Part shown: positions 6,612-31,627 of the stretch, piece by piece
Layout of the letters: each line of letters opens with the position of its first letter
How positions within the stretch are numbered: the first letter of the stretch is position 1
IMG/VR virus record: IMGVR_UViG_2767802080_000001
Coordinates: 25,770-89,769 of that record
Direction: 5' to 3' (one strand)
Origin: a virus
Taxonomy: Duplodnaviria > Caudoviricetes
Length of the DNA stretch: 64,000 nt
Notes under the pieces: generated by a model
What the model saw: only the letters and a program-made list of their open reading frames with translations
Databases searched by the model: none
Told to the model about the DNA's origin: nothing
Position numbers and translations under genes: made by a program

Positions 6612-7310
6612 ATGAGCAAGTACATCGCCACCCCCCACGTCGCCACCGCGCTGAAGGACCGGCTCACCCGGGAGTTCCCCGGCGTCCGCTTCCGGGTCAC
6701 CACCGCCACAGGGGGCAACTCCGTCATCCGCGTCAACTACGAAGACGGCCCCGCTGCCAGCGCCGTCCGCCGGATCACCAGCGAGTACGAGGGCTTGTGC
6801 TGGAACGGCGTCCAGCACGAGGCCACCGGCAGCACCCTCACGGTCACCCTCGACCATGAGGAGGTCACGGGCGAACCCCTCTGTGCCGGAGTCGACATCC
6901 AGCGCTTCATCTCACTGAGCGCCATCCAGGAGGCCCGACACCTCTGGACGGAGGCGACCGGCGAGGACTACGACGAGGCCGGGTTCACCGACCCCCTCGC
7001 CATCAAGGGGCGGGACGTTCCGGCTGGATACCCCACGCGGCAGATCGCCTTCATCGCACGCGAGATCGTCCTCGTCGACCGCTGGCAGACCTCCCTGCGA
7101 GCACGCCGGGAGGACGCTAAGGCCGCCGACTCCCCCCAGCCCCCTGCCGCTGACAAGGACCTCGTGCCTGCCGAGCAGGGCGCGCCGCAGGCGTACCGCG
7201 GGGTCCCCGTCCCCGAGCACCTGGCCGCTGCGTGGGACACCGCCAGCGCCTCCATCTGGCGCGACGGCGTCGACGCCGCCCTCACCTATGCCGCCCTCGC
7301 CAAGTCCTGA
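6612..7310 (+). CDS. LPD29-like (large polyvalent protein-associated domain) protein
   Basis: LKxxLxxxFPGVRFRV..IRVNYEDGP motif typical of LPD29. Confidence 0.6.
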   Translation: MSKYIATPHVATALKDRLTREFPGVRFRVTTATGGNSVIRVNYEDGPAASAVRRITSEYEGLCWNGVQHEATGSTLTVTLDHEEVTGEPLCAGVDIQRFISLSAIQEARHLWTEATGEDYDEAGFTDPLAIKGRDVPAGYPTRQIAFIAREIVLVDRWQTSLRARREDAKAADSPQPPAADKDLVPAEQGAPQAYRGVPVPEHLAAAWDTASASIWRDGVDAALTYAALAKS

Positions 7311-8013: not shown

Positions 8014-8066
8014 GTGGCCAAGTGAGCTTGGCCAACTTGACTTGGCCAAGCTCACTTGGGTAACGT
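8014..8066 (+). promoter_or_regulatory. Promoter TTGACT-18-TAACGT with three TGGCCAA operators
   Basis: Operators at ~8014-8022, 8027-8036, 8041-8050; -35 8037-8042, -10 8061-8066. Confidence 0.8.
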
Positions 8067-8115
8067 ACGAGGTGTTGGAAGGCACCACGCCCTCTCGGCC
8101 ACGAAGGAGCACGTC

Positions 8116-8868
8116 ATGCGTACCTACGCCACCGCCCAGATGATCGGCACCCGCAGCCACCAGTGCGACGCCACTGCCGTCCGCACCGGCGCCGACGGCG
8201 CCCGCGCCTATGTCCTCCTGGACGGCATCGGCTCCGACGACGACGTCCGCGACTGGACGCGCGCCGCAGCCCGCCACCTCGCCACGTGGGCCGCTCGCCG
8301 TGGTGACGCGGAGCAGGGTCTGCGCGCCCTCTACGCCGTGTACGCCAACGACCCGCGCCGCAACGAGCTGTTCATGTACCTGCCGTGCGCGGCCGCTGTG
8401 GTCGCCGTCGCCGCCCCCGGGAAGCCGCTCAAGGTCGCCTGGTGCGGCGACTCCCGCGCCTACCTCCTGCACGGCGGCATCGCCCGCCGCCTCACCGAGG
8501 ACCACAACCTCCGCCGCGTCTACCCGCCCACCGCGACCCGCCCGGAAGGCGGCAACCGCAACAGGATCACCAGCTACCTGGGAAGCCACCGGTCAGACGA
8601 GAACGTGAAGGCCCGGTACGGGCACCCGGCCATCGAGGCCGCCAGCGTCCCCCTCAACGGGCCGTGCCGCCTTCTCCTCGCCTCCGACGGCGCGTACGAG
8701 CCTCACGCGGACGCCGGAAACGACATCTACGCCGAGGCCGACGAGGACAAGCCCACGACCGCCGCGCGCGGCTTCGTCGCCACCGCCGTGGACGCCGCCC
8801 TGAAGGCCGAGCCCCAGTACCCCCACGCGGACAACGCCACCGTGCTGGTCGCCGACCTGACCCCCTGA
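8116..8868 (+). CDS. PP2C/PPM-family protein phosphatase
   Basis: Motifs QCDA, VLLDGIG, AWCGDSRAY, LTEDH, LLLASDG, DNAT. Confidence 0.85.
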   Translation: MRTYATAQMIGTRSHQCDATAVRTGADGARAYVLLDGIGSDDDVRDWTRAAARHLATWAARRGDAEQGLRALYAVYANDPRRNELFMYLPCAAAVVAVAAPGKPLKVAWCGDSRAYLLHGGIARRLTEDHNLRRVYPPTATRPEGGNRNRITSYLGSHRSDENVKARYGHPAIEAASVPLNGPCRLLLASDGAYEPHADAGNDIYAEADEDKPTTAARGFVATAVDAALKAEPQYPHADNATVLVADLTP

Positions 8869-8954: not shown

Positions 8955-9884
8955 ATGTCCGAGATCAGCATCACGCACACGCCCGCAGATGGCACCCTCG
9001 CCGACGGCACCGAGAAGGACGACGGCTCGGCCCCGATCCTCCACCGGGCGGGCTTCCGCTGGGGCCGGTCCATCGGCTGCTGGTACATCCGCAACAGCCG
9101 CGACCGGGCGCCGCGCCTCGTCGCCATCGAGAGCGCCGCCGAGGAGCTGCGCGCCGACGGCCACACCGTCACGGTCGAGATCAGCGGCGAGGTACGCGAC
9201 AACGCCGTGGTGAACGCCGACCAGCACGAGCGCCTGGAGGACCGCCGCAGGGCGCTTGCCGCGAAGGGCAAGAAGCTGGCCGCCCAGTCCGACGCCCTGC
9301 ACCGCGCCAGCGACGCCATGGTCGAGCACCTCCCCTTGGGGCAGCCCGTCGCCCCCGGCCGCCGAGGCCAGGCGCACAGGCGCCTGCTGGAGCGGTCCGT
9401 GGACACCGCAATCCGCGGCGCGCGGGTCGCAGACGAAGCGGCGCGTATGCCGGCACGCATCGCCGGATCGCGCCGCGCCGAGGCCTACAAGGAGCGGCCC
9501 GACGTCACCGCCCGCCGCGTCGAGCGCCTGGAGGCGGAACTGCGTTCCCTCGACCGGCGCATGGCCTCCCTGAAGCTGTACCCCCAGACCCGGTCAGGGG
9601 CCCTGCTGCGCCAGTACGAGGGAGAGCGCGCCGTCCTGGTGGAGCGCATCGCCGGTGACCGCGCCGTCTTGGAGCAGGCCAGGGCAGCAGGAACGTTCGG
9701 CCGCTACTCCAAGAGCAACGTCCACGCGGGCGACAGTGCGCTCATCCGGGGCACGTGGCGGTCCGTCATCCGTGCCAGCGCCAAGAGCGTGAGCGTCACG
9801 ACCGGCTACTCCTGGTCCGACCGCTACGGCTACGAGGAGATCCGAGACGTCCGCTGCCTGTGCGAGGACGGCGCGCAGGACTGA
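8955..9884 (+). CDS. DUF3560-like protein
   Basis: ITHTxADGTL..GFRWGRS..WY N-terminus and PLGQPV segment. Confidence 0.7.
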   Translation: MSEISITHTPADGTLADGTEKDDGSAPILHRAGFRWGRSIGCWYIRNSRDRAPRLVAIESAAEELRADGHTVTVEISGEVRDNAVVNADQHERLEDRRRALAAKGKKLAAQSDALHRASDAMVEHLPLGQPVAPGRRGQAHRRLLERSVDTAIRGARVADEAARMPARIAGSRRAEAYKERPDVTARRVERLEAELRSLDRRMASLKLYPQTRSGALLRQYEGERAVLVERIAGDRAVLEQARAAGTFGRYSKSNVHAGDSALIRGTWRSVIRASAKSVSVTTGYSWSDRYGYEEIRDVRCLCEDGAQD

Positions 9885-10835: not shown

Positions 10836-11618
10836 TCACCCGCTGCTGAGGGCGTGCTCGTAGCAGGGCGGGCAGAACGGGCGCAGCTTGCGCTCAGGCC
10901 TGCCCGACGGCGAGTTGACCACCGTGGCGTCCACGAGCAGCGCCTCATCAGCTGCGCCCTGACACCCCTCCGGCTCCCGGGGATGGACGGAGGCGCACAG
11001 GCACTGGCAGGAGCGCTCTTCGTCCGTCTCCGGCAGCGGCTCGTCATAGCTGACCTGGGGCGGGCGCGGGGACCTGCGCGCCGACCAGCCGCCGTTGCAG
11101 AGGGCGTGGAGGCTCTCGCCGTGCAGCGCGGCCCAGCGGGCAGCCGTCTGGCGGCTGAGCGGCCGCTGACCGTCTCGTGAGAAGAGCGGGCCGCTGCTCC
11201 GGCCGTCGAGGGCGGTACGGACGAGGGCTGCGGACTGGTCGCTGAGGGGGATGCGTCGCTCGTCCACGGCGGCGTGCTCCTCAGGGTCGACGTCGCGGGC
11301 GTCGAGGGCCAGGGCCTCGCCAACCCGCGCCTGACCCTCCCACAGCATGGCCCACAGGGCCCGGTGTTCGACCGGCACCGTCTCGTCGTCGAGCAGCTGC
11401 CGGTAGCGCGCGGGCGCCATGGGCGCGGTCCGCATGTCGGAGCGGTAGCCCCGGCTGGGCTGTGCGGCGCGGGCGGCGTCCGCCTCCGCCCGCTTGTACT
11501 GCTTGGCCCCGGTCTCCTGGTCCCGGCCGGGGGAGTCCAGTGAGCTGAGGATGCGGCGGGCGTAGGCGTAGCTGACGCCCCATCGGTCGGCGCACTCGCG
11601 TGCCGTGGTGAGTTCCAT
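10836..11618 (-). CDS. HTH + degenerate tyrosine-recombinase-like domain + Cys-rich tail
   Basis: HRALWAMLWEGQARVGEALALD (box I Arg), GPLF; box II reads LHALC; no clear catalytic Tyr; ends CxCxC..CPPC. Confidence 0.6.
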   Translation of the reverse strand: MELTTARECADRWGVSYAYARRILSSLDSPGRDQETGAKQYKRAEADAARAAQPSRGYRSDMRTAPMAPARYRQLLDDETVPVEHRALWAMLWEGQARVGEALALDARDVDPEEHAAVDERRIPLSDQSAALVRTALDGRSSGPLFSRDGQRPLSRQTAARWAALHGESLHALCNGGWSARRSPRPPQVSYDEPLPETDEERSCQCLCASVHPREPEGCQGAADEALLVDATVVNSPSGRPERKLRPFCPPCYEHALSSG

Positions 11619-11823: not shown

Positions 11824-12642
11824 ATGTCCACTGCCACGTACCTACGCACAGCAGACGTCCCCCTCGCCCGCCTGCGCCCCTTCCCGGGCAACGCCAAGCG
11901 GGGGAACGTCCCCACCATCCTCGAAAGCCTCTGCCGCACCGGCCAGTACCGGTCCCTCGTCGTCCGCCAGGGCGACGGCGACGAACTCACCACCCTCGCG
12001 GGCAACCACACCGCACAGGCCATCGCAGCCCACGGTCCCGGCGACTGCGGACTCAACGTCACCGTCGACGGCGAGCAACGCCCCTGCGGCCTCTGCCTGA
12101 ACGCACCGTGGGAGCCCGTCGCCCGCTGCGAGATCGTCACCTGCGACGACGCCACCGCCAAGCGCATCAACCTCGTGGACAACCGGGCCGCCGACCAAGG
12201 CGACTACGACGAGCGCGCCCTGGCAGCCCTCATTGCCGGCATGGACGGCGACCTCGCAGGCACCGGCTACAGCGACGCCGACCTCCAGGACCTCCTCGCG
12301 CCCGTCGACCTCGACGCCGACGTGGACGCCTACGAGCCGCCCGCCCGCCCCGCGGCCGCCACGCGCCCGCCCGCGGACCTGCCACCCGGGCCCGCGCCCG
12401 GCGAACCCGCCCCGCCCGCCCCGGACGGGCACGCCACCGTGCTCCTCACGTACACCACCGCCGAGCACGACGAGGTCGCCGCCCACATGGCGGCCGCCCG
12501 CAACGCCCTGCCGACGGCGGGCACCCCGGTCGTCGTCCTCCACGCCCTGCGCACCCTCACCGCCACCCTGAACGCCCGCGACGCCGCACGGGACAACCTC
12601 GCCGTCGACGAACTCCTGGCCGTCGCGGGAGTCGCCGCGTGA
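11824..12642 (+). CDS. ParB/Srx-like N-terminal domain protein with Cys insertion
   Basis: LRPFPGNAKRG..SL..GQYR..LAGNHT..DN; insert HGPGDCG..CGLC. Confidence 0.8.
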   Translation: MSTATYLRTADVPLARLRPFPGNAKRGNVPTILESLCRTGQYRSLVVRQGDGDELTTLAGNHTAQAIAAHGPGDCGLNVTVDGEQRPCGLCLNAPWEPVARCEIVTCDDATAKRINLVDNRAADQGDYDERALAALIAGMDGDLAGTGYSDADLQDLLAPVDLDADVDAYEPPARPAAATRPPADLPPGPAPGEPAPPAPDGHATVLLTYTTAEHDEVAAHMAAARNALPTAGTPVVVLHALRTLTATLNARDAARDNLAVDELLAVAGVAA

Positions 12643-13397
12643 CCGGCGCGCCCGTCGAGCTGCCCGCCCCCGTACGGCGGCGGCCACGACGGCCCGAGCG
12701 GCTCCTCGGCCAGAACAGCGAGCTCCGCGAAGACGGCGTCTGGGGGTGGACCCTCCCGGCCCTGGCCGCCCGCCTCCCCGACGGCACCACCGTCAAGACC
12801 TGCCCGGCAGCTGGGGTCTGCGCATCCGCCTGTTACGCCAGGAACGGCAGCTACCTCATCCCCAGCGTGGCGGCCCGCCACGTCGAGAACCTCCGGTACG
12901 TCGTCGAGGACCTGCCCGGCTGGACGCGGCAGATGAGCGCAGAGCTGGCCCACCAGCGGTATCGCGGCGGCTGGATCCGTATCCACGACAGCGGGGACTT
13001 CTTCAGCCCGGCGTACCTCGCCGCCTGGCTGCGCATCATGGCCTTCCGGCCCTGGGTGTCCTTCTACTGCTACACCAAGGAGCTGACACTTTTTCGCGAG
13101 ATGGTGGAACCGGCCCCGCCCCGCAACTTCCGGTGGGTGTACTCCTACGGCGGCCGCGAGGACCACCTCCTCGACCCCGCCCGGGACCGCGTGGCCGATG
13201 TCTTCCCCGACGAGGCATCGATCACCGGCGCCGGGTGGCACTCGCAGGACCGCAGCGACCTCCTGGCCGTCCTCGGCCCTGCCCCGGTCGGCATCCCCGC
13301 GAACAACATCCCGCGCTTCCGCAACCGCATGGCGGGCCGCACCTTCCGCCAGTGGCAGGCCGAGCGCGACGGCCGTCGTGCCGCCCCAGGCAGCTGA
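12639..13397 (+). CDS. GP88-family protein (Cys cluster, radical-SAM-like)
   Basis: TCPAAGVCASACYA, RIHDSGDF, FYCYTK motifs; GTGA overlap. Confidence 0.75.
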   Translation: MTGAPVELPAPVRRRPRRPERLLGQNSELREDGVWGWTLPALAARLPDGTTVKTCPAAGVCASACYARNGSYLIPSVAARHVENLRYVVEDLPGWTRQMSAELAHQRYRGGWIRIHDSGDFFSPAYLAAWLRIMAFRPWVSFYCYTKELTLFREMVEPAPPRNFRWVYSYGGREDHLLDPARDRVADVFPDEASITGAGWHSQDRSDLLAVLGPAPVGIPANNIPRFRNRMAGRTFRQWQAERDGRRAAPGS

Positions 13398-13477
13398 CCC
13401 GCGCACGCCCGGTCCGCTCCCGCCTGCCCGCTCTACCCTTCTCCGCCCCGACCCCCCCACGAGTAGGGAATCGCCCG

Positions 13478-14446
13478 ATGACACAGGCCACTTACGTAGC
13501 GACCGAGGACGTCCCGGCCGACAAGCTGATCCCCTTCCCCGGCAACGCCAAGCGGGGGGACGTCAGCGCCATCCTCGACAGCCTCCGCCGCAACGCCCAG
13601 TACCGCGCCGTCGTCGCCCGCCGCCTGCCCGGCGGCGAACTGGTCACCCTCACCGGCAACCACACCGTGGCCGCCTTCCGCGAGCACGGTCCCGGCGACT
13701 GCGGCGTCCACACCAAGAGGACCGTGCTCAAGTACGGCAAGAGGACCGTGCCCTGCGGGGTCTGCGGCAACAAGGCCGGGTGGAAGCCGACCGTCCGCAC
13801 CGAGATCATCACCTGCGACGACGACACCGCCCGCCGCATCAACCTGGCCGACAACCGGACGGCCGACCTCGGCAGCTACGACGACCGCGCCCTCCATGAA
13901 CTCCTCGCCGCTCTCGACGGGGACCTGACCGGCACCGCCTACACCGACAGCGACGTCGACGACCTCCTCAAGACCAGCGGCGCCCTCGCCGAATCGGCCA
14001 GCGCTTTCCTGGAGGACTTCGCCGCCCCGGCACCCGGCGCCCCGTCGACACACCCCTTCTCCGACACCGCCCCGCCCACCGGCGCCGCCCAGACCCCGCA
14101 GCCCCCTGAAGGCACCCAGGAGCGCCCGGCAGACAGCGAGGCGGCCGCCGCCCCGCCCCCGCACTCCGAAGGCGTCCACACCGGCCCCGCGCCGTACACC
14201 GGGCCCGGCGCGCGGCAGCCCGCGGGCGACGGAATCCCCCTGCCCACCTCTCCCCAGATGGCCCCCCTTCAGTGGGTGTTCACCCTGGAGCAGCGCGACA
14301 CCGTCCGCGCCGCCATCAAGGCCGAGCAGATCCAGGGCGGCCACGACACTGCGGCGCAGGCACTCACCGCGATCTGCAGCCACTACCTCGCCGCCGCCCC
14401 CGAGCAGGCCAGTAGCGACGCGGAGGGAGCGGCCGCGCGTGTCTGA
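13478..14446 (+). CDS. ParB/Srx-like N-terminal domain protein (paralog of 11824)
   Basis: LIPFPGNAKRG..QYR..GNHT..HGPGDCG..CGVC..INLADN. Confidence 0.8.
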   Translation: MTQATYVATEDVPADKLIPFPGNAKRGDVSAILDSLRRNAQYRAVVARRLPGGELVTLTGNHTVAAFREHGPGDCGVHTKRTVLKYGKRTVPCGVCGNKAGWKPTVRTEIITCDDDTARRINLADNRTADLGSYDDRALHELLAALDGDLTGTAYTDSDVDDLLKTSGALAESASAFLEDFAAPAPGAPSTHPFSDTAPPTGAAQTPQPPEGTQERPADSEAAAAPPPHSEGVHTGPAPYTGPGARQPAGDGIPLPTSPQMAPLQWVFTLEQRDTVRAAIKAEQIQGGHDTAAQALTAICSHYLAAAPEQASSDAEGAAARV

Positions 14447-15533
14447 CCTCCTCGCCCTGCACGACGTGCGCTGGCCGCCCGCCCCGACCGCGGCCGCGCG
14501 CCACGCCGTCAGCAGCGCCCTCGACTCCCGCTCATGGACGGCGCGCCGCTACACCCGCCTCGCCGAACAGGCCATGAGCGACCTCACCGGCGCCCCGCAC
14601 GCGGTGGCGTTCCAGTCCTGCACGGCCGCCATCCACGCCACCCTCCTCGCCCACGGTGCGCAGCGCGGCACGCCCGTGCACACCCCTGCCTTCGGCTTCG
14701 CCGGAACCCTCACCGGCGCCGCCCACATCGGCGCCACGCTGCTCTACCACGACGTCGACCTCGGCACCGGCAACAGCGTCGAGCCCGGGCACACGCCGGG
14801 GCAGCTCGTCCTCACCCCCGACCTCCACGGCGTCCCCCACAACCTGCCGCGCGCCGAGGTCATCACCGACGCCTGCCAGTCCCTCGGCACCCTCACCGAC
14901 GGCCGCCACGGCGGCGCCACCGGCACGCACTGCTGGAGCTTCTCGTCGACCAAGCTCGTCGCCGCCCCGGACGGGGGAGCGGTCACCACCGACGACGAGG
15001 CCCTGGCCGCCGAGCTCCGCCAGCTCCGCGACTACGGCGCCGAACCGTGGGAGTCCCGCGCCAACGCCTTGATCACCCGGCCCGGTCACAACTGGCGGCC
15101 CAGCGAGCTGTCCATGGCCCTCGTCGTCGAACAGCTCTACACCCTCACCGAGACCGCGGCCCGCGCGCGGGAGGTCGGCGCCCGCGTCCAGCAGACCCTC
15201 GTCGACTGCGGCCTGTGGCACCAGCGCACCCGCCCCATGGTCGAACCCGCCTGGCACAAACTCCGCACCGGCCTCCCTGGCTCCGGGCACCGGCGGCTGC
15301 CCGCGGCCCTCACCGAGGCCGGGATGCCCCTCCACCGATGGGGCCACCACCCACTGCCCGACCACCCCTTCTTCGCCCCAGCCGAGGGCCGCCGGCATGC
15401 CACCCCGCACGCCGAACGCCTCGCCGCTCAGACCTTCTGCCTCGGCACCGAGGCCTGCCCGCCCTGGACGTGGTCGCCCGGCGAGACCGAACTCGTCTGC
15501 ACCACCCTCGAAATGATCACGGAGGACCTGTGA
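14439..15533 (+). CDS. DegT/DnrJ/EryC1/StrS PLP-dependent aminotransferase
   Basis: SCTAAIH, DACQSLG, SFSSTKL (PLP Lys), DGGAVTT. Confidence 0.9.
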   Translation: MSDLLALHDVRWPPAPTAAARHAVSSALDSRSWTARRYTRLAEQAMSDLTGAPHAVAFQSCTAAIHATLLAHGAQRGTPVHTPAFGFAGTLTGAAHIGATLLYHDVDLGTGNSVEPGHTPGQLVLTPDLHGVPHNLPRAEVITDACQSLGTLTDGRHGGATGTHCWSFSSTKLVAAPDGGAVTTDDEALAAELRQLRDYGAEPWESRANALITRPGHNWRPSELSMALVVEQLYTLTETAARAREVGARVQQTLVDCGLWHQRTRPMVEPAWHKLRTGLPGSGHRRLPAALTEAGMPLHRWGHHPLPDHPFFAPAEGRRHATPHAERLAAQTFCLGTEACPPWTWSPGETELVCTTLEMITEDL

Positions 15534-16642
15534 CCCACACCCCGCTCCACCCAGTCCGCGTCGGCATCATCGGCGTCGGCAACTGCGCCCGCGCCCTCAT
15601 CGAGGGCATCGCCTACTACCGGCAGGAGCCCGACGACGACACCGGCCTGTGCCACCCGACCATCGGTGGCTACACCCCCGCCGACGTCGAGCCCGTCGCC
15701 GCCTGGGACGTCGACACCGACAAGGTCGGCCGCTCCCTGTGGGACGCGCGCGCCGCGGGCCAGAACCTCGACGTCGGCCTCCCACAGGACCTGAAGCCGA
15801 TCGCCGACGACGTCACCGTCAGCCGTGCCCCCGTCCTCGACGGCGCGGGCCACAAGTACCGCGAGCGGATCACCGTCGACGAGGGCGAGCACAACACGTG
15901 CGACGACGCGCACCGCATCTGCGAGGAGATCCAAGCCGCCGGGGTCCTCGTCCTGATCAACTACCTGCCCGTCGGCTCCCAGCAGGCCACGGAGTGGTGG
16001 GCGCGGATCGCCCTGGAGACCGGCTGCGCCTTCGTCAACTGCATCCCCGTCTTCATCGCCCGCAACGAGGAGTGGCGCCAGCGCTTCCGCGCCGCCAGGA
16101 CGCCCCTCATCGGCGACGACATCAAGAGCCAGCTCGGCGCGACGTACGTGCACCGCGTCCTCGCCCGCGCCTTCCGGGACCGGGGCATCACCCTGGAACA
16201 GACGTACCAGCTGAACGTCGGCGGCAACATGGACTTCTACAACATGCTGGAGGCCGACCGACTGGCCACCAAGCGGGAGTCCAAGAGCGGCGCCGTCACC
16301 GATGCGTACGGCCCCATCTGCCCCGGCAACGTGCACATCGGCCCCTCCGACTACGTGCCGTGGCTCGGCGACACGAAGAAGGCCTTCATCCGCTGTGAGG
16401 GCCGTGGCTTCGCCGGGGCGCCCATCGAGCTGGAGATGCAGCTCACCGTCCCCGACTCCCCGAACTCCGCCGGGATCGTGATCGACGCCGCCCGCATCGC
16501 GCAGACCGCCCTCGACCGCGGGGACCCCGACGTCGACGCGTGGGCGTCCGCATGGCTCTTCAAGGCCCCGCCGCGCTCCGTCGCGGAGCAGGACGACACA
16601 GAAGCCCGTCACCGCCTCGACGCGTGGCTCGAAGAGGCCTGA
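15530..16642 (+). CDS. ino1: myo-inositol-1-phosphate synthase
   Basis: GVGNCA, NYLPVGS, GDDIKSQLGAT, YQLNVGGNMDF, HIGPSDYVPWL, DSPNSAG. Confidence 0.93.
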   Translation: MTHTPLHPVRVGIIGVGNCARALIEGIAYYRQEPDDDTGLCHPTIGGYTPADVEPVAAWDVDTDKVGRSLWDARAAGQNLDVGLPQDLKPIADDVTVSRAPVLDGAGHKYRERITVDEGEHNTCDDAHRICEEIQAAGVLVLINYLPVGSQQATEWWARIALETGCAFVNCIPVFIARNEEWRQRFRAARTPLIGDDIKSQLGATYVHRVLARAFRDRGITLEQTYQLNVGGNMDFYNMLEADRLATKRESKSGAVTDAYGPICPGNVHIGPSDYVPWLGDTKKAFIRCEGRGFAGAPIELEMQLTVPDSPNSAGIVIDAARIAQTALDRGDPDVDAWASAWLFKAPPRSVAEQDDTEARHRLDAWLEEA

Positions 16643-16643
16643 C

Positions 16644-17456
16644 GTGCACACCGTCCTCAAGTCCAAGACGGCGTACAGCAACGACGACGTCGCCCGCGTG
16701 TGGGCCAGCATCACCGACCACGTCACCGAGGACGAGGCCGAACGCGCCGTCGAGGAGGCCGCCCGCGAGACCCGGGCGGTCCTCGACGGCCGCCCCGACA
16801 CCGCGGTGTACGGCTGGTCCGGCGGCAAGGACAGCGTCGCCCTCCAGGTCGTCATGGAACGCGCCGGTGTCCACCGCGCCCTCCTCGGCACCATCCCCCA
16901 CCTCGAGTTCCGCAGCTATCTCGCCTGGTGCGACGAGCACCGGCCCGACGGCCTCACCGTCATCGGCAACCCGCACATCACCCCGGCCTGGCTCGCCCGC
17001 CCCGGCAACGACCGCTACCTCTTCCCCACCACAAGCACCGACGGCTACAAGTGGACGATGCTCGGCACCCGCCGCGCCCAGCACCTCTACCAGCAGCAGA
17101 TGCACCCCCGCCTTCAGATCTACGGGCGCCGCACCGCCGACGGCAACTACATCCCCCCGACCGAGCACGGCATCCACCGCACCCGCCGCCTCACCACCTA
17201 CAGCCCCATCCGGCACTGGCCGCACGAACTCGTCCTCGCCGTCGTCCACTACAACCGGCGCCCCCTGCCGCCCGTCTACGACTGGCCGGACGGGTGGAAG
17301 ACCGGCACCGGCTCCTGGCCCGGCCGCCGCGTCGGCGACCGCGACACCGCCTTCGCGCAGACGTACGCGATCGAACCTGAGCGCCTCCTCGAGGCCGCCC
17401 CGGATCTGCCCGCGGCTGCCGACTGGCTGCGCCGGCATACCGACGGGAGCACCTGA
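16644..17456 (+). CDS. PAPS-reductase-family (PP-loop) protein
   Basis: WSGGKDS, GRRxAD, SPIRHW. Confidence 0.8.
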   Translation: MHTVLKSKTAYSNDDVARVWASITDHVTEDEAERAVEEAARETRAVLDGRPDTAVYGWSGGKDSVALQVVMERAGVHRALLGTIPHLEFRSYLAWCDEHRPDGLTVIGNPHITPAWLARPGNDRYLFPTTSTDGYKWTMLGTRRAQHLYQQQMHPRLQIYGRRTADGNYIPPTEHGIHRTRRLTTYSPIRHWPHELVLAVVHYNRRPLPPVYDWPDGWKTGTGSWPGRRVGDRDTAFAQTYAIEPERLLEAAPDLPAAADWLRRHTDGST

Positions 17457-18862
17457 TGACCGACATGCCCGACGGTTGGGCCCCGGTCGGCGCCTGCATC
17501 GACAAGCACGTAATGGGCTACGTGGCCAAGCACAACCGGCCGCGCCTTGCCGCCGGGGCCGACGTCTACACGCTGGCCTGCGAGCGCACCGAGTACGTCC
17601 TGGACACCCACGACCGGGCCACGGTCGCGTTCTCCGGCGGCAAGGACTCCACCGCGGTCCTCAACGTCGCCCTGGAGGTCCTCGCCCGGGAGAAGCGCCT
17701 GCACCGGCATCTGCCGCTGCGCGTCTACTTCTTCGACGAGGAGGCCATCCCGTACGAGACCGAGGAGTACGTGCGCCGCGTCGCCCAGCGCGACGACATC
17801 GACCTCGTCTGGCTGTGCCTGCCCGTGCAGCACCGCAACGCCTGCTCCCGCCGCTCCCCGTACTGGTGGCCTTGGGCGCCAGAGGACGAGGCGAAGTGGT
17901 GCAGGCCGCTGCCCCCCGAGGCGGTCACGACGTGGCCCGGCTTCCCGATCTGGCCGCCCGAGGAACGCCTGTCCGTCCCCAACACGAACGGCCTCCTCGC
18001 CCCGCCCCCACACACCACCGCGACCTTCATGGGCATCCGCGCGCAAGAGTCCCTGATCCGCGCACACGCCGTACGCCTGCGGTCCGTCGACAACTACATC
18101 GTCCCCTACCGGCCGAAGTCGAACGCGCGGCAGGCCGCGGCCGTCTTCCACGGCAACCTGTGGAAGGCCTACCCGATCTACGACTGGCTCACCGAGGACG
18201 TGTGGGCCGCGGTCCGCCTCAAGGGCTGGGACTACAACCGGGCGTACGACGTGATGGAGATGGCCGGTATCGGACCCGCAGGGCAGCGCTGCTCACCCGC
18301 CTTCGGCGAGGAGCCCCTGCAGAAGATCCACACCTACGCGCAGTGCTTCCCCGACGTGTGGGCCCGCATGGCCGAGCGCGTGCCGGGCATCGGCGCCGCC
18401 TACCGGTACGCCCGCACCGAGCTGTACGGCTACGGCAGCAAGCCCGACAAGCCCGCCGGTATGCCCTGGCCGGACTTCATCCGCCACTACCTCAGCAAGC
18501 ACGGACAGAAGGTCCAGCCGCAGATCGCCGCGCGCATCCAGGAGATCGTCACCCGGCACTACAGCAAGGTCACGCACCCGATCCTCCCCGCGACCCCGCA
18601 CCCGGTGACCGGGGTGAGCTGGGCCTTCCTCCTCACGATCGCGATGCGCGGCGACTTCAAGCAGCGCCGCCAGGAGGCGCACCAGCTGCTGAAGAAGGAC
18701 CCCACGGCCCTGTGGCACCGCTACGCCCAGGAGCTCACCGACCTCACCGCGGCCGGGCCCGAGGGCCGGACGGAGATCGGCTACCCGCAGGCGCTGCCCG
18801 CCGACCCGCGGACCCTCATCCCCGACGAGTACAAGACCCCGCCCACGGAGGCCACACCGTGA
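17456..18862 (+). CDS. IbrA-like PAPS-reductase-family protein
   Basis: FSGGKDS, FDEE, GIRAQES, YPIYDW, YNRAYD; paired with IbrB-like gene. Confidence 0.85.
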   Translation: MTDMPDGWAPVGACIDKHVMGYVAKHNRPRLAAGADVYTLACERTEYVLDTHDRATVAFSGGKDSTAVLNVALEVLAREKRLHRHLPLRVYFFDEEAIPYETEEYVRRVAQRDDIDLVWLCLPVQHRNACSRRSPYWWPWAPEDEAKWCRPLPPEAVTTWPGFPIWPPEERLSVPNTNGLLAPPPHTTATFMGIRAQESLIRAHAVRLRSVDNYIVPYRPKSNARQAAAVFHGNLWKAYPIYDWLTEDVWAAVRLKGWDYNRAYDVMEMAGIGPAGQRCSPAFGEEPLQKIHTYAQCFPDVWARMAERVPGIGAAYRYARTELYGYGSKPDKPAGMPWPDFIRHYLSKHGQKVQPQIAARIQEIVTRHYSKVTHPILPATPHPVTGVSWAFLLTIAMRGDFKQRRQEAHQLLKKDPTALWHRYAQELTDLTAAGPEGRTEIGYPQALPADPRTLIPDEYKTPPTEATP

Positions 18863-19410
18863 CCGACCACACCCCCGTGCCCGAGCCGTTGAGGGCACCG
18901 ACAGGAACGGAGCTCCAGCCCGTGAGCACGGTCACCTGGCTGCCCCGCGACGCCCTCGCCGCGAACTCCTACAACCCGAACAAGCAGGCACCCCCGGAGT
19001 ACCGCCTCCTCAAGACCTCCATCCTGGAGAACGGGTGGACGCAGCCCATCGTGGCCCGGGAAGTCGACGACCGGCTGGAGGTCGTCGACGGCTACCACCG
19101 GTGGAAGGTCTCCACCGACGCGGAGCTGGCCGCGCTCACCGGCGGCCTGGTCCCCGTCGTCGTCCTCCCTCCGACGGACCCCGCCTCAGCGCGCATGGCC
19201 ACCATCCGCCACAACCGCGCCCGGGGCACGCATCACGTCCTGGCCATGGCCGACATCGTCTCCGACCTCAAGCGCCTCGGCATCCCCGAGGACGAGATCA
19301 GCCGCCGCCTGGAGATGGACCCCGAAGAGGTCGACCGCCTCGCCGACCGCGGCGACATGATCGCCCGCCACGCCCCTGACACCTTCAACCAGGGATGGAC
19401 CGTCGGCTAG
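18859..19410 (+). CDS. IbrB-like ParB-domain protein
   Basis: ANSYNPN..SILENGWTQPIV..VDGYHR..TIRHNRARG. Confidence 0.88.
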   Translation: MTDHTPVPEPLRAPTGTELQPVSTVTWLPRDALAANSYNPNKQAPPEYRLLKTSILENGWTQPIVAREVDDRLEVVDGYHRWKVSTDAELAALTGGLVPVVVLPPTDPASARMATIRHNRARGTHHVLAMADIVSDLKRLGIPEDEISRRLEMDPEEVDRLADRGDMIARHAPDTFNQGWTVG

Positions 19411-19448
19411 CCCCGCCCCACCAGCCCGCCCGCACAAGGAGCCGCAGC

Positions 19449-20174
19449 ATGCCCGCCGCCATGAAGCGCAGCCCTGACGACGAGAACGAGATCCACGACC
19501 TCACCGCGCACACCGACCCCGGGAACTGCGTCGTCACCCCCGTCGCCCACTTCCCGGCCCGCGTCGCCCGCACCGTCACCGACGCCCTCCGCCACCTGGT
19601 CCAGGCCGCCCACCGCTCCCCGGCCGCCACCACCCCCAACGAGGACGGCATCACCCGTGCCCAGACCTTCGAGGAGGGGGAGGTCTACATGCTCGGCGCG
19701 CCCTTCACCGGCTACCCCGCCGACCGGTACCTCATGGACTTCTACGACGTCGTCGAGCGCGACATCTGCTCACGCATGCACCTGCACACCGGGCTCCGCT
19801 ACGTCCGCATGATGACCGGCCCCGGCACCCGCATCCGCGTCGCCTCCCTCGCCCCCATCCACATCACCCACGTCCCCGGCGTCACCGCGTTCCTGCCCGA
19901 GACCTTCGAAGACGACTACCCCGACGCCCCCGAAGACCAGCCACGCACCCGCCACAACCTGGTCATCCCCCCGAACTCCTGGGCCGACATGCAGATCCCC
20001 CGCGGCGTCAGCCACCAGTTCAACGCCCACGGCCCCCACGCCGTCATCGACTCCGTCCACCCCGAGGAGTCCATCGAGACCCTCCGCGAGCACATGACCG
20101 GCTACCGCATGATGGCCCAAACGATCTTCCTCGCCGACGAGCAGCCCCCCGCCCACTCCTGTCGACTCACCTGA
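19449..20174 (+). CDS. Cupin-like metal-binding protein
   Basis: MHLHTG..IPRGVSHQF cupin-like His motifs; AAGGAG RBS. Confidence 0.6.
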   Translation: MPAAMKRSPDDENEIHDLTAHTDPGNCVVTPVAHFPARVARTVTDALRHLVQAAHRSPAATTPNEDGITRAQTFEEGEVYMLGAPFTGYPADRYLMDFYDVVERDICSRMHLHTGLRYVRMMTGPGTRIRVASLAPIHITHVPGVTAFLPETFEDDYPDAPEDQPRTRHNLVIPPNSWADMQIPRGVSHQFNAHGPHAVIDSVHPEESIETLREHMTGYRMMAQTIFLADEQPPAHSCRLT

Positions 20175-20753: not shown

Positions 20754-21176
20754 ATGGGCGCCTCAGGCCGACAGCGACTCTCCGCCGTGGAGCGACGCAA
20801 GAACGCCCTCCAGCTCCAGCTCGCAGGCGTCGACCTCCGCACCATCGCCGAACAGGTCGGGTACGCGGACGCCTCCGCCGCGAAGAAGGCCATCGACCGG
20901 GCCATCGCCGACAGCATCAGCCGGGACAAGGAGGACATCGACAGCCTCCGCCGCGACGAGATCATGCGCTACAACCGGCTGCAGGCCGCCTTCTGGTCAC
21001 GGGCCGTCACGGACAAGAACCCGAAGGCCGCGGACATCGTGCTGAAGTGCATCGCCGGACGCGAGCGCCTCCGCGGCCTCCAGGCCCCCACGCAGATCAA
21101 CGTCGACGCGCAGAAACTCGGCAACGAGATCCTCGCTCTCCTCGATGGCGGAGACGACGATGCCGGCAGCGTCTGA
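20754..21176 (+). CDS. HTH protein, probable terminase small subunit
   Basis: RRKNALQLQLAGVDLRTIAEQVGY HTH; overlaps large terminase gene. Confidence 0.75.
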   Translation: MGASGRQRLSAVERRKNALQLQLAGVDLRTIAEQVGYADASAAKKAIDRAIADSISRDKEDIDSLRRDEIMRYNRLQAAFWSRAVTDKNPKAADIVLKCIAGRERLRGLQAPTQINVDAQKLGNEILALLDGGDDDAGSV

Positions 21177-24926: not shown

Positions 24927-25265
24927 ATGATCGGCCCAGCGGAGTTCGCCCTGCTCGCCGCCGCCAGCTACCGCGGCACGCAGCTCGTCGTCCACGACAG
25001 CATCCTCGACCCCCTCCGAGACCGCGTCGCCGCCTGGGAGGACCGCGCCGACAGCCGCGCCCGCACGGCGCTCCTGACCCTCATCTCCTGCATCTACTGC
25101 AGCGGCTGGTGGGTATCCGGCGCCGTCCTCGCCACCTGGCTTCTCGCCACCGGCCAGTGGCACGGCGTGGCCCCGGCCGTGCACGCCGTCGAGTGGTTCG
25201 CCGTCGCCGGGGTGCAGGCCCTCCTCAACCGCTGGGACGACAGCCGCGATACGGCGGAGTCCTGA
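24927..25265 (+). CDS. DUF1360-like membrane protein with CxxC
   Basis: YRGTQLVVHDSI..LR..LISCIYCSGWW. Confidence 0.75.
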   Translation: MIGPAEFALLAAASYRGTQLVVHDSILDPLRDRVAAWEDRADSRARTALLTLISCIYCSGWWVSGAVLATWLLATGQWHGVAPAVHAVEWFAVAGVQALLNRWDDSRDTAES

Positions 25266-27004
25266 TGGCCAACCTCACCGCCGCCGCCCAGCGCTTCATC
25301 GACCGCCGCCTCAGGCGCGGCAGGAACGCCACCCCGGACAAGGCGTGGCAGCTCGCCGCCTGGGGCTTCTACCGGCGCGTGCCCGAGGTGTACTTCTCCG
25401 CCGCCTACAACGGCCACGCCATGGCCCGCGCCCGCCTCTTCGCCGGACGCCGCGCCGACGACGGCACGATCGAACCGGCCCCCGACGACCACCCCGCCAC
25501 AGAGATCGTCTCTCAGATCGCGGGCGGCCCCGACGGACAGTCCAAGCTCCTCGGAGCGTTCGGCAAGCACCTCACCATCGCGGGCGAGGGCTGGGTCGTC
25601 GTCCGCCCCAACTCCGAGGTGAGAAACCCCGACGTCCCCGAGGACGGCCACGACTGGCTGACCCTGTCCGTCCGCGAGGTCGAGCAGCAGAACGGCAAGC
25701 TGTCCGTCCAGATCGACGGCGAAGACATCGAGATCCCCGCAGGCGACCCCGACACCCTCGACCCCCAGGCGCCCGTGGCGCTCCGCGTATGGACGGCCGA
25801 CCCCGAGCGCGCCATCGAGGCCGACAGCCCCGTCCGCTCCAGTCTCGGCCTCCTCGAAGAGCTGGAACTCCTGAACGCCGCCGTCAAGGCCATCGCCAGG
25901 AGCAGGCTCACGGGCCGCGGCATCCTCCTCGTCCCCAAGGGCGTGCGTTTCCCCACCAAGCCCGGCCAGTCAGACGCCGAGGACGACCTGATCGAGATGC
26001 TGATGACCGTCGCCGAGACGGCCATTCGCGAGCCCGACAGCGCCGCCGCCACCATCCCCATCGTCCTCGAAGTCCCGTCCGACTCGATCGCGAGCTTCAA
26101 GCTGATCACCTTCGAGTCCGAATTCGACGAGCTCGCGATCAAGCTCCGCGAGGAGGCGATCCGCCGCTACGCCACCGGCCTGGAGATGCCCGCCGAGATC
26201 CTCCTCGGCATGGGCGACATCAACCACTGGGGCGCGTGGCAGCTCACCGAGGAGGCGATCAGCCTCGGCATCGAGCCCAAGCTCGCCACGGTCGCCCACG
26301 CCCTCACCCTGCAGTGGCTGCGCCCCCTCCTCCAGGCCGAGCGCGTCCCCGACTGGCACCGGTGGCTCGTCTGGTACGACACCGCCCCCCTGCGCGTACG
26401 CAGCAACCGCAGCCAGGTCGCCCTGGAGACATGGGACCGGGGCCTGATCTCCGACACGGCGGCCCGGCGCGAGACCGGCTTCGACGACGCCGACGCCCCC
26501 GACACGCCCCCGAAGCGCCCGAAGGCACGCACCGAACCCCAGGACGACGACACCAGCACGCCGGAGGTGGACCTGCCCGTGGACGAGACGAACAGCGAAC
26601 CCGACACCCTGCCCGCATCCCTCGCCTACGCCCCGCCCATCGACCCGGCGCTCCTGGCCGCAGCGGACGGCCTGATCTGGGCCGCCCTGTCCGCCGCAGG
26701 GGAGAAGCTGCGCCGCACGCCGGCATGCCCGCGCTCCGAACGCGCCCGCGCCCGCGAGCTCCAGCCCGCGCAGCTCCACACGATCCTCATCATCGAGCAG
26801 GACGAGGTCGACCGGTGGCGTCTCCTCGACGGCGCATGGGCGCGCCTGCCCGAGGTCGCCGACCGCTACGGCGTCGACCCGGACTGTCTCACCGCAGCCC
26901 TGGACACCTACGCCCGGGAGCTCATCACCGCCGGGGTCGAGCACTCCTACGACCTGGTCCCCAGCGCCCTCCACCCCTGCACGGCCGCGCGGGAGGCCGC
27001 ATGA
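25265..27004 (+). CDS. Portal protein
   Basis: Position after terminase; ~579 aa; PAEILLG..NHW motif. Confidence 0.75.
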   Translation: MANLTAAAQRFIDRRLRRGRNATPDKAWQLAAWGFYRRVPEVYFSAAYNGHAMARARLFAGRRADDGTIEPAPDDHPATEIVSQIAGGPDGQSKLLGAFGKHLTIAGEGWVVVRPNSEVRNPDVPEDGHDWLTLSVREVEQQNGKLSVQIDGEDIEIPAGDPDTLDPQAPVALRVWTADPERAIEADSPVRSSLGLLEELELLNAAVKAIARSRLTGRGILLVPKGVRFPTKPGQSDAEDDLIEMLMTVAETAIREPDSAAATIPIVLEVPSDSIASFKLITFESEFDELAIKLREEAIRRYATGLEMPAEILLGMGDINHWGAWQLTEEAISLGIEPKLATVAHALTLQWLRPLLQAERVPDWHRWLVWYDTAPLRVRSNRSQVALETWDRGLISDTAARRETGFDDADAPDTPPKRPKARTEPQDDDTSTPEVDLPVDETNSEPDTLPASLAYAPPIDPALLAAADGLIWAALSAAGEKLRRTPACPRSERARARELQPAQLHTILIIEQDEVDRWRLLDGAWARLPEVADRYGVDPDCLTAALDTYARELITAGVEHSYDLVPSALHPCTAAREAA

Positions 27005-27397: not shown

Positions 27398-27798
27398 GCT
27401 GCTTCCCTGACGAGTACTACAGGGCCCTGTTCGCCGCCGCCGGGGACATCCCCGCCGAAATCCTCTTCAGCACGGACGACTCCAGCCACTGGGAGGCGTG
27501 GCGGCTCCCTCACGAGTCCCAGGCGCCCGGCACAGTACCGGCACCCAGGAGGGAAGCCCCCGTGCCCGACACCCCCGATGACGAAGAGCCCGCACCCGAG
27601 GGACCGCCCAAGGAGTACGTGGCACCGCCTGGCCACTCCCGCGCCGGGCACCGCGTGCACGGCTGGTGCTCGCGCTGCCCGGGCCGCGAAGTGTGGGAGG
27701 AGCTCCTCGCCTGGCGGCTGCGCGACAACGAGGCCAACGACGAGTCCCCGGCGCCCGACCGGGCACCGGCACCGAGCAGGGAGGCCGCTCGTGGCTGA
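27394..27798 (+). CDS. Hypothetical protein
   Basis: HGWCSRC motif; coupled to neighbours. Confidence 0.5.
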   Translation: MSCFPDEYYRALFAAAGDIPAEILFSTDDSSHWEAWRLPHESQAPGTVPAPRREAPVPDTPDDEEPAPEGPPKEYVAPPGHSRAGHRVHGWCSRCPGREVWEELLAWRLRDNEANDESPAPDRAPAPSREAARG

Positions 27799-30700: not shown

Positions 30701-31627
30701 CTGCCCCCGATGCCCGCGCGCTGGTTCGCCGCACCGACTGCCGAGGAACTCCCGCCGGGATCAGGCGGCGTGCACTACAAGGACGGCCGCGTCTTCGGCT
30801 GGGTCGCCCAGGCCGGTGTTCCTCACGCGGGCTACCCGGGGAAGAACCTGACGATCGAGAAGCTGGTGAGGGAAGGGCTGGACACCACTCACTTCCTGCG
30901 GCAGAAGTTCGTCCTCGACGACGGCACCGCGGTTCGCGCGGGCGCCTTCACGATGAACGTGCCCCACCGGCGGGACGGCGCCGAGTGCGAGGACGCCGCC
31001 TGCCAGTTCGACGACACGCGCACCGTGGCCGGGGTCGTGACGTGCGGCCTGTCCGAGGGCGGCCTGTGGTTCACCGGTGCAGCCGCCCCGTGGCTGAGCG
31101 AGTGGGACATGCGTGTGTTCCTGGCCTGTCAGCCGTCCTACCACCTGATGCAGGCGGAACGCGGCAAGGGCTGGGAGCTGCGCGCCGTCCTGACCGTGCC
31201 GGTGCCCGGTCACTCGTCGGCCCTCGTGGCCGCCGCCGTCGACCGCGCGAACCTCGCCCTCGCAGCTTCTGCGGCCGCCGAGCAGGACGACGTCCGGACC
31301 GTGTCCGCAGACGCGTCCGTACTGAGTCCGGATGCTGTCCGGACGACATCCACGGCCACCCCCGGCATGGCCGATGAGCAGGGCGGACACAGTCCGGACG
31401 CGGAGTACGGACAGTTTCCGGACGCGCGTGAGGTAGCCGATGCGGTGGTCGCCGCGATGCTCACCGACGGCGAGTTCCTGGACTACCTGAGCGCCGCCCT
31501 GGAGGAACGGGAGGCGGCGCGCGCGGAGATGGACGCGGAGATCGAGCGCCTCGCCGCACAGATCGACCCCGACACACAGCACGTCGCCGCCGCGCTCGTC
31601 GGCGGCCCGGCAGAGGGAGGCCAGTGA
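27791..31627 (+). CDS. MuF-like minor head protein fused to 2H phosphoesterase and probable prohead protease/scaffold regions
   Basis: KQWVTRRDSRVRDAH..YPGDP..NCRC (MuF); HLTL and HVC (2H); ETGDGRIF..GVSVDLDD..GATLVAMPAY (protease-like). Confidence 0.8.
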   Translation: MADDLEGALAAAEEDVAAEVRAILDDVAAEFAAELADATELVAARFSVSRIAGMWSRHVPRLMRRLFGAGETAARTAADSVDAQLPDDFEDLPARYDDGTLPTGLGEYAESTEHLLRAVGDRLAETAVRELATGLDAGEDIDALRARLRAVFDAEGAQLGETREERIARTEAARVWNAATLAAADALDGLERPLVKQWVTRRDSRVRDAHDAVDGFVRLLDDTFTVAGVPMAYPGDPTAPAALTVNCRCILRLQTAHRAAALESQDRLGGGLIKARPADAEHTAAADGSHRSGAMIALMPTEDDARRLAIEGGEPAEELHLTLYFLGEGADWTEDQRNELIGNLHASAAELGAPLHAFAFGAAHWNPASDTPSWVWNVGDDRDRPLDTPTLAYAHALATYALDTHERPELPVQHSPWAAHVCAAYSDDPALLGELVARTGPITFDRLRVAFAGEHTDIPLAPREEPMPDTTAAATPVRAWSTPDETAIAYEDEETGDGRIFARDSLYWDAPGPWPLQYADEMLMGHEGAELAGQIDTMGREGGRIPATGVLYATRPAGQDAIHLLEEGAPLGVSVDLDDVDMEVIDRTKTDDDGDVLVLAASLPSASVLRLADGAYMLSAATAGEWTADGGTLTRARHNVQLFTGPDGRISSAAFAAAFAGTGVLTAAAGDRDDPEQGTVVHTQHAGDVLMRITRARVRGATLVAMPAYSRARIVLDAAEETAAAAAPPALSASGDDHERVISYVRTSPVAVGARETSGAVGIGMNSARAHLARAAKAGRLVRLAPGLYAGPCTTMSDEQQAACRGLSAAASGDLDLPVHEDPDAAWDGDQAASRILAWATGEDGTVDADRLGAAFLYRDPDKDATTLAAYKLPFADLFPSGDGERLEVVARAVFAVAGVLQGAMGGVDLPEDERDSIRARVEQLYARLAEAYDDPSLTAPWDDGQDDDDEGMAASLAELEASAWSAMRDLPPMPARWFAAPTAEELPPGSGGVHYKDGRVFGWVAQAGVPHAGYPGKNLTIEKLVREGLDTTHFLRQKFVLDDGTAVRAGAFTMNVPHRRDGAECEDAACQFDDTRTVAGVVTCGLSEGGLWFTGAAAPWLSEWDMRVFLACQPSYHLMQAERGKGWELRAVLTVPVPGHSSALVAAAVDRANLALAASAAAEQDDVRTVSADASVLSPDAVRTTSTATPGMADEQGGHSPDAEYGQFPDAREVADAVVAAMLTDGEFLDYLSAALEEREAARAEMDAEIERLAAQIDPDTQHVAAALVGGPAEGGQ

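Follow-up and report, generated by a model that had tools for sequence, protein, structure and literature searches.

A DegT-Ino1 cassette in the variable slot of a phage PP-loop/ParB module: a possible aminocyclitol supply for the marking of phage DNA

Nine genes that precede the terminase genes of an actinomycete prophage join a two-enzyme cassette for cyclitol chemistry to a phage module of PP-loop ATP pyrophosphatases and ParB-domain proteins. They occupy positions 11824-20174 of a 64,000-nucleotide stretch of IMG/VR record IMGVR_UViG_2767802080_000001 (positions 25,770 to 89,769; Duplodnaviria, Caudoviricetes), and this whole stretch is referred to here as the window. The cassette encodes an aminotransferase of the DegT family and an Ino1-type cyclitol-phosphate synthase, and the module encodes a stand-alone PP-loop protein (F), ParB-like proteins, and a pair resembling IbrA and IbrB. 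Comparison with other viral loci places the cassette in a variable slot of this module, which is larger and older than the cassette itself. In the reading favored here, the cassette would supply an aminocyclitol to the module, which would act as an ATP-dependent ligase and mark phage DNA; the full chain is given a probability of about 0.35. Its links differ in strength: functional coupling of cassette and module is probable, an aminocyclitol is the rather likelier product of the cassette, and DNA is only a tentative choice of acceptor. The nine genes, with their lengths in amino acids (aa) and the E-values of their family matches, are as follows.

11824-12642, plus strand: ParB/Srx-like protein 1 (ParB1), 272 aa, with a Cys-rich insert; phrog_723, 1.3e-46
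12639-13397, plus strand: GP88-family protein, 252 aa; PF17338, 1.2e-53
13478-14446, plus strand: ParB/Srx-like protein 2 (ParB2), 322 aa; phrog_723, 8.1e-40; phrog_498, 1.2e-14
14439-15533, plus strand: pyridoxal phosphate (PLP) aminotransferase of the DegT/DnrJ/EryC1/StrS family (DegT), 364 aa; PF01041, 3.4e-44
15530-16642, plus strand: Ino1-type cyclitol-phosphate synthase (Ino1) of a DegT-linked subclade, 370 aa; PF01658, 4.9e-32
16644-17456, plus strand: F, stand-alone PP-loop ATP pyrophosphatase with the fold of phosphoadenosine phosphosulfate (PAPS) reductase and FAD synthetase, 270 aa
17456-18862, plus strand: IbrA-like protein, 468 aa; PAPS_reduct, 1.4e-09; DUF3440, 6.8e-07; phrog_2302, 1.2e-74
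18859-19410, plus strand: IbrB-like ParB/Srx-domain protein, 183 aa; ParB_N, 1.2e-08; phrog_2159, 2.1e-56; phrog_498, 5.3e-17
19449-20174 (likelier start; 19395 is the alternative), plus strand: metal-type cupin, 241 aa (259 aa from 19395); phrog_28683, 1.3e-114

The window, part of contig 6 in an actinomycete-type genome of 10.2 Mb, has a GC content of 72%, for which reason genes were called by third-position GC; the calls are clean. Six of the seven measured junctions are overlaps or a one-base spacing. The overlaps are of 4 bases at ParB1/GP88, 8 at ParB2/DegT, 4 at DegT/Ino1, 1 at F/IbrA, and 4 at IbrA/IbrB, and a single base separates Ino1 from F. The seventh junction, GP88/ParB2, is a gap of 80 bases, the start of ParB2 being backed by alignment with two related viral loci (L006 and L007), and the junction of IbrB with the cupin depends on which cupin start is chosen. 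A consensus scan of 11.8-20.2 kb found no promoter-like or terminator-like site on the plus strand. An earlier note on this DNA, made from the sequence alone, had described the block as nine mostly translationally coupled genes with these identities; the junctions bear out the coupling, and family matches, profiles, and structure models agree with the identities. The note had also placed the block directly before the terminase. It does lie upstream of the small (terS) and large (TerL) terminase genes, but the cupin is followed by a gap of 613 bases and then by the terS-like gene.

DegT and Ino1 form a unit, as had been proposed: DegT lies directly upstream of Ino1 in all nine loci of one Ino1 clade. 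A scan of IMG/VR with the window Ino1 recovered four contigs (L006, L007, L008, and L009; 65-80% identity), in each of which DegT immediately precedes Ino1 and F, IbrA, and IbrB come after it. Among the best 80 of 575 relatives in a metagenome scan, one Ino1 reached 79% identity and the other 79 no more than 52%; the former sits on a short contig (L128) carrying the end of DegT, Ino1, and the start of F. F is thus retained after the cassette in six of six phage-type loci (the window, L006-L009, and L128), and IbrA and IbrB are present in all five that are long enough. Identity across these loci falls to 38% for DegT and 39% for IbrA with the same gene order, which indicates that the arrangement has outlasted long divergence. 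The proposal had been staked in advance on a conserved linkage of ino1 and DegT to IbrAB and the terminase, and that linkage is what these loci display. Species-representative genomes (best 80 of 586 relatives) yielded four Ino1s at 68-71% identity, all from Actinomadura, and 76 at no more than 52%. One of the four belongs to the prophage L008, and the other three, from Actinomadura darangshiensis (L040), A. kijaniata (L041), and Actinomadura sp. WMMA1423 (L043), stand without F, IbrAB, ParB, or terminase. Because the genome and metagenome scans kept 80 loci each and used peptide patterns of the window protein, divergent members of the Ino1 clade may be missed.

The module reaches well beyond these loci. 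A scan of IMG/VR with F recovered 28 viral loci of 37-72% GC, of which 27 carry IbrA, 26 IbrB, and 4 (L006-L009) Ino1 with DegT. The usual order is a variable gene, F, a gene of about 200 aa from the same family as ParB1 and ParB2, IbrA, IbrB, a small gene, TerL, and portal. Half of 16 non-redundant loci (8) have, in the slot upstream of F, a permease with 7-11 transmembrane segments related to the sodium:solute symporters (SSF); in L034 the slot holds an SsuA/TauA-like solute-binding protein, and in L122-124 and L126 the cupin. L009 carries both kinds of insert, in the order ParB, ParB, SSF permease, DegT, Ino1, a gene of unknown function, two GT25-like genes, and F. As the slot appears to encode either solute import or the synthesis of an amine-bearing cyclitol, it is read here as the source of substrate for a ligase made up of the two PP-loop enzymes. 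Inositol chemistry, which the earlier note had put at the core of the operon, is conserved in its linkage but present in a small minority of F loci. IbrA-like genes occur as tandem copies in L006 (11904-14692), L007 (11914-14721), and the module relative L019 (10588-13316). In deposited phage genomes, 215 of 50,697 records carry an IbrA-like gene, among them phages of Flavobacterium, Mycobacterium, and Streptococcus, all at less than 60% identity (27.5-31.9% among the 25 matches listed), and a single record carries F. Within the window's own family, an F query at E<=1e-10 found only the window's genome among 301, with no match in the 300 others.

The nine Ino1s linked to DegT (six phage, three Actinomadura) group by maximum likelihood into one clade with a Shimodaira-Hasegawa-like approximate likelihood-ratio support of 99 and a long stem of 1.25, separate from housekeeping Ino1s, the host copy, and the Ino1s of large phages. 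The tree was built from 39 of 89 rows, namely 13 named sequences and every third of 75 other housekeeping-type ones (26); a partial Ino1 paralogue of 30% identity (L005) was left out. The three Actinomadura copies nest among those of the phages, but at supports (88-90) too low to give the transfer a direction, and the DegT of L008 is 61-62% identical to them versus 52% to that of the window. The annotated locus L040 has the pair in an operon of acyl carrier protein (ACP), DegT, Ino1, and acyltransferase genes, flanked by genes for an aromatic amino-acid lyase, a type III polyketide synthase, a sulfotransferase, a thioesterase, CysD/CysN, a LuxR regulator, and a MATE exporter; in L041 and L043 the genes next to the pair agree with these in size and order. 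This operon is probably a cluster for a sulfated natural product that is predicted to contain an aminocyclitol. Judged by these sequences, the phage cassette shares its ancestry with a biosynthetic gene cluster.

Both cassette enzymes look intact in sequence. The PLP-binding lysine of DegT, within SFSSTK (WSFS(S/A)(T/A)K across the clade), and the motif TDACQSLG are invariant in eight of eight clade members. Ino1 matches the Mycobacterium tuberculosis structure 1GR0 at 5.2e-95 over residues 8-353 and aligns with it in the motifs GIIGVGNCA, GDDIKSQLGAT, NVGGNMDF, KRESKS, TKK, DSPNSAG, and FKAPP, which comprise an N-terminal NAD-binding glycine motif and the Lys/Asp motifs of the active site, the catalytic residues being those proposed for the Archaeoglobus enzyme. 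No phosphatase or dehydrogenase is encoded in the cassette in any of the nine loci, among the nine window genes, or among the neighbors scanned in L008, L009, and L040, in line with the earlier remark that no dedicated inositol dehydrogenase is visible. The host has five IMPase-family genes over cut-off and IolG-like genes, one of them at 304.9 bits (under the cut-off of 355), and host enzymes of these two kinds could serve the cassette.

By sequence, F matches only phrog_424 (1e-10) and has no Pfam match. Its alignment-based AlphaFold model (predicted local distance difference test, pLDDT, 95.5) was matched by Foldseek to PAPS reductases, FMN adenylyltransferase, TtuA, and the ATPPase subunit of GMP synthetase, with a best E-value of 4e-6 and a template-modeling score over the query (TMq) of 0.50; the resemblance is one of superfamily (TM ~0.45-0.5, 11-18% identity). 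Across 22 sequences F has the invariant motifs YGWSGGKD, GxRxxDxN, and HE and no conserved Cys. Across 32 IbrA-type sequences SGGKD, DEE, and GxRxxE are invariant and no Cys is, the best column having Cys in 28 of the 32. PP-loop enzymes that lack a catalytic Cys typically either activate a carbonyl or carboxylate by adenylation so that an amine can attack it, as do TilS, GMP synthetase, and QueC, or transfer AMP to phosphate or sulfate, as do CysD and FMN adenylyltransferase. By analogy with these, SGGKD without an invariant Cys is more in keeping with adenylation and subsequent attack by an N- or O-nucleophile, or with transfer of an adenylyl group, than with sulfur insertion.

The ParB domains of ParB1, ParB2, and IbrB all match phrog_498 (1e-14 to 5e-17; 3e-15 for ParB1, which has no Pfam match at E<=0.01), the N-terminal domain of phage ParB-DNA-methyltransferase fusions. 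The PADLOC profile MTase_II matches the IbrB-like protein over its ParB part (6.3e-05), and many ParB relatives carry a zinc-ribbon-like CPxCGE motif at the C-terminal end. The phrog_498 matches, this motif, the place of the module at the packaging genes, and the setting of Ino1 in Menderavirus phages, described below, hint at DNA as the acceptor. The GP88-family protein has three clustered Cys (55, 61, 65) and occurs, among the DegT-Ino1 loci compared, only in the window, L006, and L007; its relatives in the Atlas are all viral clusters of unknown function, including DUF7227, and no PDB relative was found by sequence. These matches speak neither for nor against the oxidase role that the earlier note had suggested for it.

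The cupin has no Pfam match. Its alignment-based model (pLDDT 85.6) resembles cupin sugar isomerases in Foldseek (1.5e-6) and, in a VIA comparison, gentisate dioxygenase (Z 9.7, root-mean-square deviation 3.2 over 134 residues) in a tie with many other cupins. Its invariant residues include H111 and H113 (HxH), H189, H204, and further His and Glu, and the model is that of a member of the cupin superfamily with a generic metal-cupin fold. There are 464 homologues at E<=1e-5; the 34 that were aligned, from Streptomyces, Nocardia, Mycobacterium, and Deinococcus, are 63-80% identical, and the cupin of a phage of 35% GC is ~60% (61%) identical. Three homologues (P0033, P0080, and P0109) have a C-terminal ACP domain fused to the cupin. 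In five of five further viral loci that lack Ino1 and DegT the cupin stands alongside F, IbrA, and IbrB, which assigns it to the module and not to an inositol branch. The suggestion that it might be the missing inositol oxidase of the cassette was accordingly set aside: the cupin is also absent from L008 and L009, and its fold matches are generic. The Cupin_2 gene that precedes DegT in L008 is unrelated to it.

If the favored reading is right, Ino1 would cyclize a hexose phosphate to a cyclitol phosphate and DegT would transaminate a keto-cyclitol, giving an amine of the inosamine type. A phosphatase and a dehydrogenase of the host could provide this keto-cyclitol, or a phosphorylated inosose could itself be the substrate of DegT. 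F and IbrA would adenylate the acceptor at the expense of ATP and couple the activated acceptor to the supplied amine or cyclitol, and the ParB-domain proteins would aim the reaction at phage DNA before packaging, leaving a bulky anti-restriction mark. A wider form of this reading, which we consider unlikely, makes F, ParB, IbrA, and IbrB a widespread and so far unrecognized phage class of post-replicative DNA hypermodification, in which PP-loop adenylation would install a variable amine on DNA shortly ahead of packaging and the slot would set the amine. Phages with a permease or binding protein would import it, and the actinomycete prophage lineage would make its own in the form of an inosamine.

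Several findings weigh against this chain of steps. DegT had been proposed to aminate an inosose, and it has the family and the PLP lysine for that role, but its closest solved relatives are ArnB (2.1e-23) and perosamine synthetase (1.4e-17), with the glutamine:scyllo-inositol transaminase 7B0D at 1.5e-11; it thus stands closer to aminotransferases acting on nucleotide sugars than to the inosose enzyme of known structure, and every NCBIfam equivalog score is far under cut-off. Ino1 scores 354.9 bits against TIGR03450, under the equivalog cut-off of 638, and its second-best solved relative is Ari2 (6K96; 7.8e-52), a paralogue that yields a five-membered cyclitol phosphate. In a comparison of 77 housekeeping-type, 8 linked-clade, and 3 large-phage rows (L042, identical to L008, was dropped), 55 of the 163 columns conserved at >=95% in the housekeeping sequences are altered in at least one clade member, some 20 of them clade-wide. 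These changes and the score under cut-off suggest that the product may not be myo-inositol phosphate. ParB/Srx folds also include phosphotransferases of small molecules and proteins, such as sulfiredoxin and an archaeal serine kinase, and a ParB domain is therefore no proof of DNA targeting. Among 40 window genes compared with Pfam and/or PHROGs, a set that left out about 36 smaller called genes and the contig beyond the window, none matched a base hydroxymethylase, DpdA/TGT, or a hypermodification kinase. The literature covered offered no established biochemical function for IbrA/IbrB or for YbdN/YbdM of Escherichia coli. The slot permeases and binding protein, moreover, suit small-molecule handling as well as they suit DNA modification; the same goes for the ACP-fused cupins and for the two GT25-like genes that follow Ino1 in L008 and L009, and the DegT-Ino1 pair itself is common to the phages and to a natural-product cluster outside them.

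The last of these points belong to the most credible alternative, a rather doubtful one in our estimate, in which the module makes a soluble (amino)cyclitol conjugate, such as a nucleotide-activated, acylated, or glycosylated inosamine, that serves as an effector, counters host defense, or excludes superinfecting phages. In that case the ParB/Srx proteins would be NTP-dependent phosphotransferases or regulators and not DNA clamps. Permeases, a binding protein, cupins, and GT25-like genes fill or flank the slot, and the nearest folds of F, PAPS reductase and FMN adenylyltransferase, are those of small-molecule enzymes. Set against this are the likeness of the ParB domains to those fused to phage DNA methyltransferases, the place of the module just before terS and TerL, which is fixed across 37-72% GC, and the lack of an export gene or further tailoring genes in the window operon. 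An aminocyclitol-type product thus remains plausible, and attachment to DNA, which the earlier note had offered alongside a small effector, is one of two live readings.

It is improbable that DegT-Ino1 is an independent moron, an auxiliary metabolic gene pair that might, for instance, enlarge the inositol, mycothiol, or envelope pools of the host and that landed in a permissive spot beside an IbrAB-type module with an unrelated task such as regulation or help in packaging. The cassette is mobile: prophages and a natural-product cluster both carry it, and the L008 DegT is nearer to the cluster copies. Large phages of Stenotrophomonas, Caulobacter, and Ralstonia carry a lone Ino1. IbrAB, too, is named a co-activator of prophage gene expression in one report (PMC4490671). 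Yet insertion point and order are kept in all six phage-type loci with DegT diverged to 38%, stops and starts overlap, the slot of other phages holds substrate-handling genes, and the host possesses an Ino1 besides, which shares 49% identity with that of the window. Least probable of all is the decoration of virions, in which phage glycosyltransferases would place an (amino)cyclitol-containing glycan on capsid or tail proteins. Virion glycosylation is known in mycobacteriophages, two GT25-like genes lie between Ino1 and F in L008 and L009, and the structural region of the window encodes an FkbM-methyltransferase/glucosyltransferase fusion (42854-44272) and a weak Stealth-like gene (44996-45715). 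But no GT25-like gene is near the cassette in the window, L006, or L007, the Stealth_CR2 match has 24.8 bits against a cut-off of 39.4, and both PP-loop enzymes and the ParB proteins would be left without a role.

Hundreds of phage genomes, as well as E. coli K-12 (ybdNM), have pairs of the IbrA/IbrB type, annotated as PAPS reductase and ParB. The present locus makes this pair part of a more extensive module, which also has a second PP-loop enzyme and a variable slot for substrate supply, and in one lineage the slot is a two-enzyme cassette whose product can be predicted, labeled with isotopes, and traced to its acceptor. Should the acceptor prove to be DNA, both the chemistry of this phage DNA modification and the enzyme family behind it would be new, and under the hypermodification reading no earlier DNA modification would derive from inositol. 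Should it prove to be a small molecule, the locus would be an uncommon example of a biosynthetic cassette present both in a prophage and in a natural-product cluster of actinomycetes.

The remaining features named here surround the operon.

10836-11618, minus strand: integrase-like gene, 260 aa; under the Pfam cut-off; phrog_1, 7.8e-08
20787-21176, plus strand: probable small terminase subunit, 129 aa
21145-22815, plus strand: large terminase subunit TerL, 556 aa; phrog_2, 2.7e-37
25265-27004, downstream of TerL: portal
27791-31627: MuF-domain polyvalent head protein, 1278 aa, with extra regions that match RNA-ligase-labeled and head-protease-labeled PHROGs

The gene at 20787-21176 is probably terS, judged by its position, its size, and its conserved place before TerL in L006, L007, and L008; its sole family match is to phrog_645 (2.3e-23), labeled 'Rnase E'. 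The portal is followed by the MuF-type protein and then by the major head protein, and with these genes downstream the setting of the nine genes is that of a prophage late operon. Upstream of the operon, the short integrase-like gene, perhaps a remnant or else a recombinase of atypical kind, diverges from the start of ParB1, and genes with LPD29 (6612-7310), a PP2C-like phosphatase domain (8056-8868), and DUF3560 (8955-9884) lie farther out. The segment 42854-46515, comprising the FkbM fusion, two genes of unknown function, and the Stealth_CR2-like gene, may be a virion-glycosylation set. Neither a tRNA gene nor an Rfam family was found in the window, and megablast found no near-identical DNA among deposited phages. 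Of sequencing runs carrying the window sequence, the sole listed match is the probable source assembly, and no RNA run is listed.

Among the closest known counterparts of the module is the IbrA/IbrB pair of E. coli with its paralogues YbdN/YbdM, in which a PAPS_reduct and DUF3440 protein is likewise followed by a ParB_N protein; these domains are noted for YbdN and YbdM in one source (PMC9068703). The likeness is one of domain architecture, not of direct comparison with E. coli IbrA, and the window adds to the pair the stand-alone F, the ParB-type proteins, GP88, the cupin, and DegT-Ino1. The literature covered, which excludes most subscription journals, gave no defined chemistry for Ino1 in phages or for modules of the IbrAB type, and no report joining PAPS reductase, a ParB-like protein, and terminase in a phage. 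A search on prophage, aminocyclitol, and inositol found only one unrelated species description; the earlier remark that no described phage inositol-derived DNA modification was known to its author agrees with this literature.

Actinomycete routes to aminocyclitols, as in streptidine, spectinomycin, and hygromycin A, use Ino1, a phosphatase, an inositol dehydrogenase, and an aminotransferase. The cassette shares with these antibiotic routes an Ino1-family synthase and a DegT-family aminotransferase. It differs from them in having no phosphatase or dehydrogenase in nine of nine loci, in a DegT nearer to ArnB, in a separate, long-stemmed Ino1 clade, and, in its phage loci, in the setting of a phage late operon.

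Ino1 also occurs by itself in phages. Twenty phage records have an Ino1 match, 16 of them Stenotrophomonas phages. The Menderavirus Ino1s (phages Moby, Ps15, and relatives) are 38-39% identical to that of the window, and in Stenotrophomonas phage Moby (MN095772.1; 7207-12621 of the locus, L001) Ino1 stands between FolE and QueC-, TGT-, and QueE-like genes, amid a 7-deazaguanine gene set, a known route of DNA modification. Unlike the window, these phages have no DegT, F, or IbrAB, and their Ino1 falls outside the DegT-linked clade and within a single phage lineage. The Ps15 study holds that Ino1 reached the phage from bacteria by horizontal transfer and connects the que genes with tRNA (PMC9025141). 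No report joining phage inositol-3-phosphate synthase with deazaguanine was found in the literature covered, and in Caulobacter phage Cr30 and Ralstonia phage RP13 Ino1 is flanked only by hypothetical genes.

Dnd and Ssp phosphorothioation, to which the earlier note had likened the locus, also pairs a PP-loop ATP pyrophosphatase of the PAPS-reductase superfamily (DndC, SspD) with a ParB-superfamily protein, as DndB is called in one paper (PMC12839542). The analogy is weak. IbrA scores 18.3 bits against the DndC model TIGR03183, with a cut-off of 290.4, and only over residues 56-81, the P-loop; against the PADLOC DndC profile it reaches 22 bits (1.4e-05), with no single stretch that passes. No member of the cysteine desulfurase family is found among the nine genes. 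The match limited to the P-loop and the lack of an invariant Cys in F and IbrA make sulfur insertion of the Dnd/Ssp type unlikely, and this chemistry was rejected as a candidate. A nearer parallel may be found in TilS, GMP synthetase, QueC, CysD, and the eukaryotic FMN adenylyltransferase, whose SGGKD PP-loop works independently of cysteine, as that of F appears to do. A putative amine donor encoded next door adds to this likeness, which is at the level of the superfamily.

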